From a virus (Duplodnaviria > Heunggongvirae > Uroviricota > Caudoviricetes), in the IMG/VR virus record IMGVR_UViG_3300010234_000001, positions 1 to 50,611 of that record: a stretch of 50,611 nucleotides of DNA. One strand, 5' to 3'. Below, one piece after another: positions 30,591 through 33,809 of this stretch. The stretch's first letter is position 1; each line of letters starts with the position of its first letter. The notes under the pieces were generated by a model that saw only the letters and a list, made by a program, of their open reading frames with translations, had not been told where the DNA came from and searched no databases. Position numbers and translations under genes: made by a program.

Positions 30591-31252
30591 ATCAATTCGA
30601 TTACGGATTAACCGATATAACAACCGATTCCGGGAGGATATACGTTCTCCCGGACGGAACTCAATATCCATCAGTAACTACCGTTCTAGGGCACGTTAAA
30701 CCCCAAGGGATAATTGATTGGGAAGAGCGGATCGGATTGATAGAAGCTGACAGGATTCGTGACATTGCAACATCAAAAGGTTCAAAACTTCATGATCTTG
30801 TTGAAAGATATCTTGACGGACAGAAGCCGGATCACAAAAGGGAATTCCCGGATGTTAACGCACTATTCTTCAAGATAAAATCGGAACTTGATAAGATATC
30901 CAACATCGTATGCCAAGAGGCTGCGCTATATTCGGACGAACTTAAAATTGCCGGTAGGGTTGACTGCGTTGGTAAATATAATGGGCAATACGCTATAATC
31001 GACTTCAAAACAGCATCCAAACCAAAGAAGCCGGAATATATCACCAGCTACTGTGAACAAATAACCGGATATGGGCGAATGTTTTACGAGAGAACTGGCA
31101 TAAATATCAGACGCGGTGTTATTATTATGGCATCACCAATCAAAGGCCAAGTTTTTAAGGTGCGTTTGGATGATCATATCGAATCCTTAAAAGCCAAAAT
31201 AGAAGGATACTATCAAGATGTTGAAGCTAATACTGACACTATTATTGAGTAG
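30584..31252 (+). CDS. PD-(D/E)xK exonuclease
   Basis: YPSVTTVL, G..H..VE.YL, E..LYS..IAGRVDC, IIDFKT, Y..Q..Y. Confidence 0.85.
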   Translation: MVNQFDYGLTDITTDSGRIYVLPDGTQYPSVTTVLGHVKPQGIIDWEERIGLIEADRIRDIATSKGSKLHDLVERYLDGQKPDHKREFPDVNALFFKIKSELDKISNIVCQEAALYSDELKIAGRVDCVGKYNGQYAIIDFKTASKPKKPEYITSYCEQITGYGRMFYERTGINIRRGVIIMASPIKGQVFKVRLDDHIESLKAKIEGYYQDVEANTDTIIE

Positions 31253-32315
31253 TGTTATAATTGTCGGCAGCGCATTCGCGCTTTCCGCCGATAAAACACC
31301 ATTGCCCGCCCATGCGATTGCGTATCAGGCGAGAGCGGCAACAGTCCTTATTCATGCCCATAACAACGCAGTAAAGCCATGGTGGAATGATTCGGTCGGC
31401 ACCGGATTTATGATCGATCCGAATGTATTCATCACGAATTATCACGTCTTTCCAAGATATTTTACGGACGACGTAAAGGTAACGGCGCAAACGTACAATA
31501 CGAGCCGTGAATATGAGGTTGAAGTAATTGCCGCTGATCGCTTGACGGATATTGTCATCTTTGGGATCATTGGATGGAATGAATTTAAGGGAATCGAACC
31601 ATACGGCATTCTAGAATTTGAGGAAAATCCAAAAGGTATTCAATACGCGGATATAACATACGCTTTCGGTCACCCCGGAAGGGCGGATTGGACATTCCTA
31701 AGCGGAATCGTATCTAATCCGAATGGTCATCCGGTCACCGAAATTCAACCAACCACAATGATTCAGACGAATCTAGGCATTGGACCGGGAATGTCGGGTG
31801 GTCCGGTTTTGAGTGAAACAGGAAGGGTTATTGGAATCAGTAATCAAATTATTGATGTTCCCGGAACAAACACCGGTTTTGCCATTCGTTCGGATTCGGC
31901 AATCGAAATTATTTCCGACCTGATGGATGATGATGGTGTTGTTCATTGGCCTAAAATTGGAATCGGAATGAAAGACGATCCGGATTTGCCATACACATTG
32001 ATTGAAGATGTGATTGAAGGTTCTACTGCGGATGGAATATTCCTTCCGGGGGATCAAATTATTTCCATCAATGATCGGAGCGGTGCCAGAGTCAGGGACG
32101 TTCAAGAAGAAATATGGCTATACAATTTGGGTGACGTGCTGGCGTTCGAGATAGAACGGGACGGGGAACGATTGACGAAGATTGTGATAATCAAAGAGGT
32201 TATCACATCCGAAGAATTAAATGAGTTGATTCACGTCTATACTCCAACCCCGCTTCCGCTGGTGGAAATTGCACCGCCACCATCACAACCGGAAACGGAT
32301 GACGAAAATCATTAA
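31218..32315 (+). CDS. secreted HtrA/DegP-like serine protease with a PDZ domain
   Basis: Signal peptide; GTGF, TNYHV (His), TDI (Asp), GMSGGP (Ser); C-terminal IG...GD.I.SIN PDZ. Confidence 0.85.
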   Translation: MLKLILTLLLSSVIIVGSAFALSADKTPLPAHAIAYQARAATVLIHAHNNAVKPWWNDSVGTGFMIDPNVFITNYHVFPRYFTDDVKVTAQTYNTSREYEVEVIAADRLTDIVIFGIIGWNEFKGIEPYGILEFEENPKGIQYADITYAFGHPGRADWTFLSGIVSNPNGHPVTEIQPTTMIQTNLGIGPGMSGGPVLSETGRVIGISNQIIDVPGTNTGFAIRSDSAIEIISDLMDDDGVVHWPKIGIGMKDDPDLPYTLIEDVIEGSTADGIFLPGDQIISINDRSGARVRDVQEEIWLYNLGDVLAFEIERDGERLTKIVIIKEVITSEELNELIHVYTPTPLPLVEIAPPPSQPETDDENH

Positions 32316-32332
32316 AAATGCATTTTTAGGGG

Positions 32333-32361
32333 TTGACATACGACACCGGATGCTATATACT
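32333..32361 (+). promoter_or_regulatory. strong sigma70-like promoter of the tmRNA locus
   Basis: TTGACA-N17-TATACT. Confidence 0.8.
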
Positions 32362-32369
32362 ACAGAAAT

Positions 32370-32428
32370 AATGACCGATGACGGTAATCGGAGGGAAGCA
32401 AGACCGGGGGGCGGTACCCCGCGCCTCT
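32370..32428 (+). pseudogene. relic alphaproteobacterial-type tmRNA acceptor piece without CCA
   Basis: gac-cgggg-GGCGGTA-ccccg-cgcctct followed by aaag instead of ACCA. Confidence 0.65.
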
Positions 32429-32441
32429 AAAGTAGAAAAGT

Positions 32442-32478
32442 TATAAATAGTGCATAGGAGGATAACTCTATGCACTAT
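32442..32478 (+). promoter_or_regulatory. late promoter overlapping a hairpin that sequesters the SD and AUG
   Basis: TATAAATA 32442-32449; atagtgcata 32447-32456 pairs with tatgcactat 32469-32478. Confidence 0.85.
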
Positions 32479-33006
32479 ACGATATACAAAATAACAAACT
32501 TAGTAAACGGTAAAATCTACATCGGAAAACATCAAACCAACAATTTGAACGACAATTACTATTCATCATCAAAAATTTTAATTGATGCTATAAAAAAACA
32601 TGGTAAAGATAATTTTCGAAAAGAAATTTTGTTTGATTTTGATGAAGAAGAAGATATGAATATGAAAGAAGCTGAAATTGTTTCAGAAGAATTTGTCAGT
32701 CGGCAAGACACTTACAATGTCGCATTAGGAGGGAATGGTGGTTGGTCTTACATCAACGATGGTTCCAATGAACACTTGGATAGAGCCAGAAAGGCTTCGA
32801 AGAAAGGCTTTGAAAATGCTAGAAATCACCCAAATTGGGGTAAGACATCCTTTCAAAAAGGTGATCCGAAAGTTGCGCAATTAGCCATAAAAGCAAATGA
32901 ATATAGAAAAAAATATGGTCTGACAAAAGAACATAAAAATAAAATTCGTCAAGCGTCTTTAAAAAGAGAACAACAAAGACGAGAAACTGGATACTATCAG
33001 AAATAA
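32470..33006 (+). CDS. free-standing GIY-YIG (seg-like) homing endonuclease
   Basis: YTIYKITN.VNGKIYIGKHQT, F.KEIL, E.EIV, TYN...GG.GG; paralog of 852..1481. Confidence 0.9.
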   Translation: MHYTIYKITNLVNGKIYIGKHQTNNLNDNYYSSSKILIDAIKKHGKDNFRKEILFDFDEEEDMNMKEAEIVSEEFVSRQDTYNVALGGNGGWSYINDGSNEHLDRARKASKKGFENARNHPNWGKTSFQKGDPKVAQLAIKANEYRKKYGLTKEHKNKIRQASLKREQQRRETGYYQK

Positions 33007-33007
33007 C

Positions 33008-33080
33008 GCTGACTGATAGCTCATCATAGATCGACTGGATTGTGGTATGGACCCGGTTTCGATTACCGGCATCTCCACCA
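33008..33080 (+). ncRNA. ssrA: two-piece tmRNA, acceptor piece (5' end approximate)
   Basis: gac-ccggt-TTCGATT-accgg-CATCTCC-ACCA. Confidence 0.9.
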
Positions 33081-33088
33081 AAATATAT

Positions 33089-33306
33089 GGGGATGAAAGG
33101 ATTTCGACATATACGAAAAGGAAGATTTAGGTGTTCGACAAGATGCTGTCGTTAAATAGAATCACAAACTAAACGCAAACCTAACTGCGAGCAACGACAA
33201 TGTTGCAAATAAGGGTAAGCCTTCTCGCGGAATCGTCAATGACGGTTTCGCTATTGCGGCCTAACCTATGAGCTTCGGGAGTGAGCTTGGAAACAGAATC
33301 ACTCCC
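33089..33306 (+). ncRNA. ssrA: two-piece tmRNA, coding piece; tag ANLTASNDNVANKGKPSRGIVNDGFAIAA* at 33175..33264
   Basis: GGGGATG pairs with CATCTCC including G3:U70; ...TTCGAC D-region; tag ends in AA*; 3' hairpin gggagtga-gcttggaaacagaa-tcactccc. Confidence 0.9.
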
Positions 33307-33319
33307 AACTTATTTGAAT

Positions 33320-33428
33320 CGGAAATGTATCATTAGTTTAACTAGCGGAATCTAGTCAATGCTAGGATGCAGAGAAGGCCCGACCGCTAAAGACTAGAAT
33401 GGGGGTAAGCTCTGGTGATACATTTCCG
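33320..33428 (+). ncRNA. unclassified structured RNA
   Basis: 13-bp perfect closing stem cggaaatgtatca/tgatacatttccg with internal helices; no ORF. Confidence 0.5.
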
Positions 33429-33569
33429 TGCTACGCGTTAAGGCTTTGGAGATTCTTCGGGGGATAAACTCCAACCAGTCAAATAAAAGTAATCCCTTGG
33501 TCTTTCAAGAGCTTTCGCCATAGTAAAGCTCTGTCATTTTCCCTCATACCCCTAGGAGTCTTCCATCGC

Positions 33570-33809
33570 ATGTCTTCTTCCTATCATTACTACGCAAGGG
33601 CCGGATTATCATACGAAATAAACAATGTAATTAATTTGGAAATAGATAGATTGAAACATATAAAACGAGACATGGACCCCGACAAAGATACATTGGATGA
33701 AAATTGGACGACTTACAATAATACAATTAGACAAATTGAAGATATGAATATGATTAAGACATATATGGAAAGTAGAATTAAAAAATTGACGGAGCAATTG
33801 GATGACTGA
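33570..33809 (+). CDS. hypothetical protein
   Basis: AGGAG SD, ORF. Confidence 0.6.
   Translation: MSSSYHYYARAGLSYEINNVINLEIDRLKHIKRDMDPDKDTLDENWTTYNNTIRQIEDMNMIKTYMESRIKKLTEQLDD

Follow-up and report, generated by a model that had tools for sequence, protein, structure and literature searches.

A probably working circularly permuted tmRNA gene of apparent mosaic make-up, with a long predicted tag, beside a homing endonuclease gene in a T4-like phage

The ssrA locus and its tmRNA gene

The window analysed here (the whole stretch of 50,611 nucleotides) spans the opening 50.6 kb of a record of 178,611 bp assembled from a metagenome, and that record is a complete 178.6-kb T4-like virus genome with direct terminal repeats, rated 100% complete. 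The tmRNA (ssrA) gene lies between a dexA-like exonuclease gene and gp33-gp59-gp32; its neighbours are an RNase H-like gene, the dexA-like exonuclease, a secreted HtrA-like protease, gp33, the gp59 helicase loader and gp32. T4-type replication and transcription genes are thus found on both sides of it. An assembly mis-join at the locus is unlikely. The proposal of the initial annotation that the gene is phage-encoded is borne out by the complete record, its terminal repeats and these flanking genes. The gp32 of the window is approximately 55% identical to cyanomyophage gp32, and the phage is probably no marine cyanophage because psbA is absent from its genome. No SmpB gene was found in the phage genome, and therefore host SmpB would be needed. 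Assignment of a host via bacterial genomes was tried and rejected: among 185,579 bacterial species genomes the acceptor stem of the window tmRNA with a 1-30 nt spacer occurred in only three tmRNA genes, from scattered taxa, the remaining matches to the pattern being tandem tRNA-Ala genes.

The protease gene upstream (31218-32315) encodes an HtrA/DegP-like protein of 365 aa that combines a trypsin-like with a PDZ domain and has a signal-peptide-like N-terminus, and a secreted protease is unusual for a T4-like phage. A 32% identical homologue occupies the same position upstream of ssrA in L075, the closest relative found; a search with the protease gene for close relatives of the locus returned no kin.

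Downstream of the protease gene the locus is laid out as follows.

32333-32361 (+): sigma-70-like early promoter from a promoter scan, 11 of 12 consensus matches
32362-32428 (+): apparent relic of an alpha-type acceptor piece, with hairpin 32375-32391, T-arm 32405-32421 and acceptor 3' strand 32422-32428
32442-32478 (+): expression cassette, with T4-late-promoter-like TATAAATA at 32442-32449 and a perfect 11-bp hairpin
32470-33006 (+): free-standing, SegE-like GIY-YIG homing endonuclease gene, 178 aa (homing activity putative)
33018-33080 (+): live acceptor piece, with helix-2 strand, T-arm, acceptor 3' strand and ACCA
33053-33069 (+): T-arm of the live acceptor piece, canonical T-loop, closing pair U-A
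33070-33076 (+): acceptor 3' strand, followed by ACCA at 33077-33080, read from the sequence
33081-33088 (+): intervening segment (spacer) of 8 nt, read from the sequence
33089-33174 (+): front module of the coding piece, with acceptor 5' strand 33089-33095, helix-2 strand and a 23-nt linker
33099-33108 (+): tmRNA-specific D-loop analogue within the front module (Rfam alignments)
33136-33151 (+): PK1-region hairpin within the front module (Rfam alignments)
33175-33264 (+): tag reading frame, 29 codons and TAA, with an alternative resume codon, GCG 33187, giving 25 aa
33277-33306 (+): post-tag hairpin (PK2 element), an 8-bp stem and a loop with the conserved ...GGAAACAGAA motif
33307-33569 (+): extra non-coding stretch of 263 nt, folded into several hairpins, among them a closing stem of 13 perfect pairs (33320-33332 with 33416-33428)

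ARAGORN called a permuted tmRNA at 32987-33355 (+) with its tag frame at 33175-33264, and the Rfam tmRNA_permuted model RF04321 matched 33018-33264 along its full length (model positions 1-213) at 93.4 bits against a gathering score of 47 (E 7e-17, whole window), this being the sole RF04321 match, and the sole tmRNA, in the 178,611-bp genome. It is almost certainly a genuine permuted tmRNA gene, and the two-piece, circularly permuted form that had been read from the letters is upheld by both programs, which the initial annotation had itself proposed as checks. The permuted order is seen in the ACCA end at 33080, which precedes the start of the 5' strand at 33089, while the 5' end of the acceptor piece falls somewhere in 33007-33018. 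The acceptor stem (33070-33080 with 33089-33095) has seven pairs, including G3:U70, and discriminator A, and a two-strand fold of the gene yields the acceptor stem, T-arm and helix 2; the anatomy first described (a CATCTCC-ACCA end at 33080, an 8-nt spacer, a start at 33089 and G3:U70) is thus confirmed as read from the sequence. Spacers of approximately 1-30 nt are found in other viral permuted tmRNAs with the same acceptor stem. The PK1-region hairpin is at its expected place, and a second stem for the pseudoknot was not identified in the sequence.

The U-A closing pair of the T-stem is unique to the window among 45 phage permuted tmRNAs, and it is also found in at least 81 ordinary bacterial tmRNA genes from metagenomes and is therefore compatible with function. 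A reading of this pair as a rare anti-endonuclease change was rejected as unsupported, the pair being common among bacterial tmRNAs. In the post-tag hairpin the loop motif is invariant in 8 of 8 aligned phage genes and the stems vary, the differing stems appearing, by eye, to keep their pairing; the best match to this hairpin at any locus fetched was that of L075.

Taken together, 33018-33306 is probably an intact, working circularly permuted ssrA gene of a T4-like phage, and its function is predicted with good confidence. That the gene is instead dead or interfering, a scar of rebuilding that does no tagging or a decoy for host SmpB, is highly improbable. In favour of such a fate are its scores under both clade-specific Rfam cut-offs, an 11-bp hairpin within the tag reading frame, a PK1 pseudoknot seen only as far as the hairpin 33136-33151, and the report of a tRNA-domain-only phage tmRNA that inhibits host tmRNA (PMC11915505). 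However, all the identity elements, the D-loop motif, helix 2, the resume context, the open frame and the Ala-Ala stop ending are intact, and the relic upstream gives a local picture of what decay looks like, with its lost CCA and broken stem.

Promoter, relic and endonuclease gene

The promoter at 32333-32361 aligns with promoters that immediately precede the alpha-type tmRNA genes in L014 and L008, and L075 has a like promoter at the same position, suggesting that this is the ancestral ssrA promoter, now heading the relic, the endonuclease gene and the live tmRNA. By its sequence, the segment that follows (32362-32428) reads as the stranded relic of an older acceptor piece: its T-arm retains an intact 5-bp T-stem and an alphaproteobacterial-type T-loop, with a partial match to the alpha_tmRNA model at 32405-32421. 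In an alignment of 32333-32428 with five relatives, which covers the promoter and the whole acceptor piece of the relatives' alpha-type genes, 25 columns are invariant, nearly all of them in the T-arm and acceptor strand. The relic has lost its CCA and the last base of its stem is changed; paired with the live coding piece its strand would give an A-C mismatch and three wobble pairs (read from the sequence). No alpha-type coding piece matching the relic was found anywhere in the genome. Within the relic hairpin a 14-nt stretch (32377-32390) is 93% complementary to 33060-33073 of the live T-arm and acceptor strand, a likeness near chance level (approximately 0.1 expected by estimate).

The endonuclease gene starts 42 nt downstream of the relic, and the live tmRNA gene comes directly after its stop codon. 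Its product was assigned to PHROG 314, ‘homing endonuclease’ (E 1.4e-43), and its GIY-YIG domain to the Pfam family SegE_GIY-YIG PF19835 (30.9 bits, cut-off 25); homing activity is putative, being predicted from these matches. Of its 13 closest homologues on viral contigs (L080-L090, 44-65% identical), 11 lie within tRNA arrays, where a tRNA gene stops 41-135 nt upstream of the start codon, and homologues are scattered through the tRNA arrays of unrelated phages. At the same site in L075, in Pelagibacter phage Mosig and in L004-L014 the gene is absent, and none of 48 homologous loci was a donor with the endonuclease beside a tmRNA.

The cassette in front of the gene suggests how it may be expressed. 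Its hairpin (32447-32457 with 32468-32478) encloses the ribosome-binding site, pairs with the start codon and overlaps the late-promoter-like motif. The same motif stands before the ATG in the homologues L080-L082, L084 and L086-L090, with an inverted repeat around it in L080, L082, L086 and L088. In phage T4, early read-through transcripts keep genes with such hairpins silent, and by analogy with these T4 precedents the endonuclease gene may be regulated by hairpin and late promoter in the same way.

Phage T4 SegB provides the nearest named parallel (PMC2330249), as in both phages a free-standing GIY-YIG gene stands among tRNA-like genes, and SegB recognises the tRNA T-stem-loop, with flanking tRNA genes co-inherited in crosses (PMC2330249). 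The window differs in that the neighbour is a tmRNA gene and the Pfam match is of SegE type, not SegB; its cleavage specificity is putative.

Beyond the post-tag hairpin the extra stretch at 33307-33569 has a fold z-score of -2.4; L075 and Mosig are without it, the next gene starting right after the post-tag hairpin. It gave no Rfam match at E up to 5 and no significant likeness to alpha-type intervening or coding pieces. That it holds the remains of the old alpha-type coding piece was considered and rejected, with no nhmmer match and, in local alignments to seven relatives, z no higher than 1.8 against 300 shuffles. An Rfam scan of 32200-33700, taken to E 5, turned up no glutamine riboswitch of the kind reported for Melnitz and Mosig.

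Relatives at the locus and the mosaic make-up of the gene

Two-piece tmRNAs have already been published for phages, with 53 counted in isolated phages by 2021 and Melnitz, Mosig and the pelagimyophages discussed (PMC9004378), and therefore the kind of gene is not new; a 2025 tmRNA database holds 79 phage sequences (PMC11915505). The initial annotation had taken permuted tmRNAs to typify the Alphaproteobacteria, which overstates the case, given the beta and cyanobacterial lineages that have them as well as the 53 phage forms (PMC9004378). The site is known too. Five distant relatives, found via gp59 at approximately 30% identity, have a permuted tmRNA in the same gene order, alpha-type by Rfam at 95-142 bits, and both of the tags that ARAGORN called in them are of 13 residues. 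In L075 (gp59 52% identical) the gene order is unchanged and the tmRNA is alpha-type, its tag being 16 residues long, and in Mosig an annotated SsrA stands in the order nuclease, SsrA, gp33, gp59. A search with the acceptor stem and a short spacer (1-30 nt) found 49 more viral contigs, many of them T4-like with the gene at the same locus; these genes are mostly beta-type, with one cyano-type and one that scores as alpha with a canonical T-loop. Close relatives of the live gene itself were sought in viral and metagenome contigs with patterns for the exact T-arm, the back-translated tag end and the tRNA domain, and none was found, while blastn against isolated phages gave only short tRNA-like matches.

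The window thus holds a known kind of gene at a known locus, and what is unusual is the tag lengthened in frame, the hybrid make-up, and the homing endonuclease and dead acceptor piece alongside. This mosaic, standing behind an endonuclease gene and a dead acceptor piece, was absent from the initial annotation, and no published account of such an arrangement was found in the literature searched.

The live gene falls short of the alpha model RF01849 (48.9 bits, cut-off 50), its T-loop being canonical and not alpha-type, and of the beta model RF01850 (49.9 bits, cut-off 84); both clade-specific Rfam models miss it and the merged model alone catches it. Segment profiles were built from the fetched alpha-type and beta-type phage genes. 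For the acceptor piece the alpha-type profile gave no match and the beta-type profile 22.9 bits; for the tRNA-like 5' half with PK1 there was again no alpha-type match, and the beta-type profile gave 4.1 bits. From the resume context to the post-tag hairpin the order is reversed, the alpha-type profile scoring 34.9 bits over the whole length and the beta-type profile 20.5 bits at the 3' end only. With the front half alone the best clade-specific Rfam model was beta_tmRNA (45.9 bits), the Rfam clade models being uninformative on the back half. These scores are consistent with a mosaic in which a canonical or beta-like tRNA-like front is joined to an alpha-type tag-coding back, the front being assigned from low scores in small profiles. 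Against a beta-like front, a profile of whole alpha-type coding pieces still covers the live coding piece along its entire length, at 43 bits.

Comparison with named systems places the gene between types. With the phages Mosig EXVC030M (MT647606) and HTVC008M and the OM43 phage Melnitz (PMC9004378) it has in common the permuted form, the genomic site, an early promoter before the gene, the same post-tag hairpin loop and the same tag family, but their genes are alpha-type throughout, with tags of approximately 9-13 residues, spacers of approximately 60-140 nt and no endonuclease, whereas here the T-loop is canonical, the spacer is 8 nt, the tag runs to 29 residues, and a relic and the endonuclease gene lie upstream. 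With the Caulobacter-type alphaproteobacterial tmRNA (RF01849) it shares the order of acceptor piece, spacer and coding piece, an A-N-D-N-like tag start and an Ala-Ala end, and the relic at 32362-32428 has an alpha-type T-loop, but the live gene is below the RF01849 cut-off, with a T-loop and D-loop analogue of canonical type. The beta-type (RF01850), frequent at this locus among uncultured T4-like phages, resembles the window gene in its canonical T-loop, its short spacer and the size and arrangement of the part between tRNA domain and resume codon, but the window gene stays well under its cut-off overall and its tag-coding half is nearer to alpha-type phage genes.

Two other genes have mixed or matching features. 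A permuted tmRNA on the metagenome contig L236 (167-512) has a T-arm 91% identical to that of the window and an identical D-loop analogue, and may represent the donor type of the front module; the partial Cys-rich ORF preceding it had no significant Pfam match. The tmRNA of another T4-like phage (L039:2019-2343) clears the alpha-type Rfam model at 110 bits, although its T-loop is canonical and its spacer 11 nt long, and mixed tmRNA forms may be a wider class.

We propose that the ancestral state was an ordinary alpha-type two-piece gene with a tag of approximately 13-16 residues, and that a GIY-YIG endonuclease of the family found in tRNA arrays, beside tRNA 3' ends, landed just behind its tRNA-like acceptor piece. 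A new acceptor piece, the short spacer and the canonical or beta-like tRNA-like 5' half would have arrived with it, leaving the old acceptor as a relic without CCA and the tag-coding back half native; the tag would have grown later, by a diverged 15-nt duplication of the resume context and a hairpin-forming insertion, both in frame. Since SegB recognises the T-stem-loop and tRNA genes are co-inherited with it (PMC2330249), a nuclease-linked swap is the most economical reading, and we favour nuclease-linked replacement of the front module with moderate confidence.

The main alternative, that the whole live gene is foreign and was brought in complete by the endonuclease, the likeness of the tag half reflecting family-wide conservation, we regard as unlikely. 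It draws on the conservation of the resume context, tag ends and post-tag hairpin across alpha- and beta-type phage genes, on L039, from which alpha-scoring genes with a canonical T-loop and short spacer are seen to exist as a type, and on the nearly identical tRNA-like domain of L236. Against this, the alpha-type profile outscores the beta-type on the back half and does so over its whole length, the best single match of that half is L075, the closest phage relative by protein, and the downstream sequence yielded no trace of an old coding piece. Our best overall explanation, held with fairly good confidence, is a working permuted ssrA gene with a nuclease-linked history of rebuilding. A fuller version, in which a nuclease of tRNA arrays swapped in a foreign module and the resulting hybrid works with two usable resume sites and a doubled adaptor-like motif, is put forward tentatively, as somewhat less than an even chance. 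If true, it would mean that selfish nucleases shuffle tmRNA modules between co-infecting phages and that longer tags can arise as a side effect.

The tmRNAs that phages carry, although known, are still little understood. Alpha, beta, cyano and mixed types of tmRNA appear to replace one another at the ssrA site in marine and aquatic T4-like phages, and a homing endonuclease of the tRNA-array family may take part and leave a datable relic, which would provide a testable route for the evolution of modular RNA genes.

The long tag and its resume codon

ARAGORN gave exactly the same 29 residues for the tag as had been translated earlier, and the second in-frame Ala codon pointed out at 33187 is indeed present. 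The tag starts at an Ala resume codon with a conserved upstream context, of which 16 of 17 nt around the first Ala codon are identical to L075, and ends in a hydrophobic Ala-Ala stop homologous to those of the relatives; the N-D-N-V-A codons match those of L012 and L075, and an identity of 77% to L075 over 65 nt extends from the last tag codons across the stop codon and the 8 nt behind it to the post-tag hairpin. The tags of the relatives are 9-16 residues overall against 29 in the window, and the commonest tmRNA tag length overall is 10 (PMC11915505).

Two insertions account for the difference. The first, of 15 nt (33180-33194), directly follows the first two tag codons, as compared with all seven relatives, and is a diverged duplicate of the resume context, hence the second resume-like context noticed in the initial annotation. 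The second, in mid-tag, is of approximately 24-27 nt and holds a seemingly perfect 11-bp hairpin (33227-33251, minimum-energy fold), found nowhere else in the genome. The long tag would therefore be an ordinary ANDN...FA(L/I)AA tag extended by in-frame insertions and a duplication, as judged from the alignments; preservation of the frame across both insertions is expected by chance approximately 1 time in 5 and is weak evidence. Derivation of the tag insert from a stretch of the endonuclease gene was considered and rejected, the likeness being at chance level by estimate.

Both resume contexts (33175 and 33187) retain U at -5 and A at -4, which fix the reading frame in E. coli (PMC2481249). 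GCA 33175 lies 23 nt past the PK1 hairpin, compared to approximately 20-22 nt in beta-type phage genes, and aligns gap-free to the beta model and to all relatives; because of this distance and consensus match it is favoured as the resume codon, at about twice the likelihood of GCG 33187. A tag of 29 residues is thus the more probable outcome. Resumption in the second copy of the context, at GCG 33187, with a 25-residue tag or with both forms made, is rather unlikely: the RF04321 alignment sets its consensus resume codon there, the context likewise has the U at -5 and A at -4 (PMC2481249), and the sequence that follows reads closest to the A-N-D-N start of the family, but this placement requires a 13-nt insertion after PK1 that alignment of the beta model and all relatives to 33175 does without, and the first context is the better-conserved copy in its near identity to L075. 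Both sites may be used, and the frame and C-terminus are identical either way.

With GCA 33175 preferred, the gene would work as follows. Transcription from the early promoter at 32333 would give a long precursor, in which RNase P would cut before 33089 and the 8-nt spacer would be trimmed back to the encoded CCA at 33080; the processing of the Caulobacter two-piece tmRNA is the model for this cut and 3' trimming. The 7-bp acceptor stem and helix 2 would keep the two RNAs joined; charging via G3:U70 would be done by the alanyl-tRNA synthetase of the host, and host SmpB would carry the RNA to stalled ribosomes. Translation would resume at GCA 33175, or less probably at GCG 33187, to add a tag of 29 (or 25) residues with the customary hydrophobic ...AIAA degron at its end.

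The insert had been called basic, which it hardly is, its charged residues being two Lys, one Arg and two Asp, for a net charge of +1. It had also been suggested that the insert may change adaptor or protease routing, and that the phage could so reprogramme the fate of stalled proteins; as an adaptation selected for that effect, the long tag is very unlikely. The tag is two to three times the length of that in all relatives at the ssrA locus and retains the C-terminal degron, an N-D-x-(V/F)-A motif lies near either end of it, and the pair could give two adaptor sites or a wider spacing, and expansion recurs in two others among 46 phage permuted tmRNAs. However, the insert is not shared by any relative, the insertions resemble ordinary products of duplication and slippage, and the net charge is just +1. 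A degradation tag can apparently more than double by in-frame duplication with its ends kept, and this tag would be a natural test case for how far resume-site choice and adaptor spacing tolerate change.

Among the 46 other viral permuted tmRNAs, the tags called by ARAGORN were of 9-16 residues in 44 and of 30-31 residues in two. These two, from uncultured phages (L026 and L052), have predicted tags of 30 and 31 residues, and one of them is cyano-type, with the usual cyanobacterial tag motif embedded in it; tag expansion in phage tmRNAs may therefore recur.
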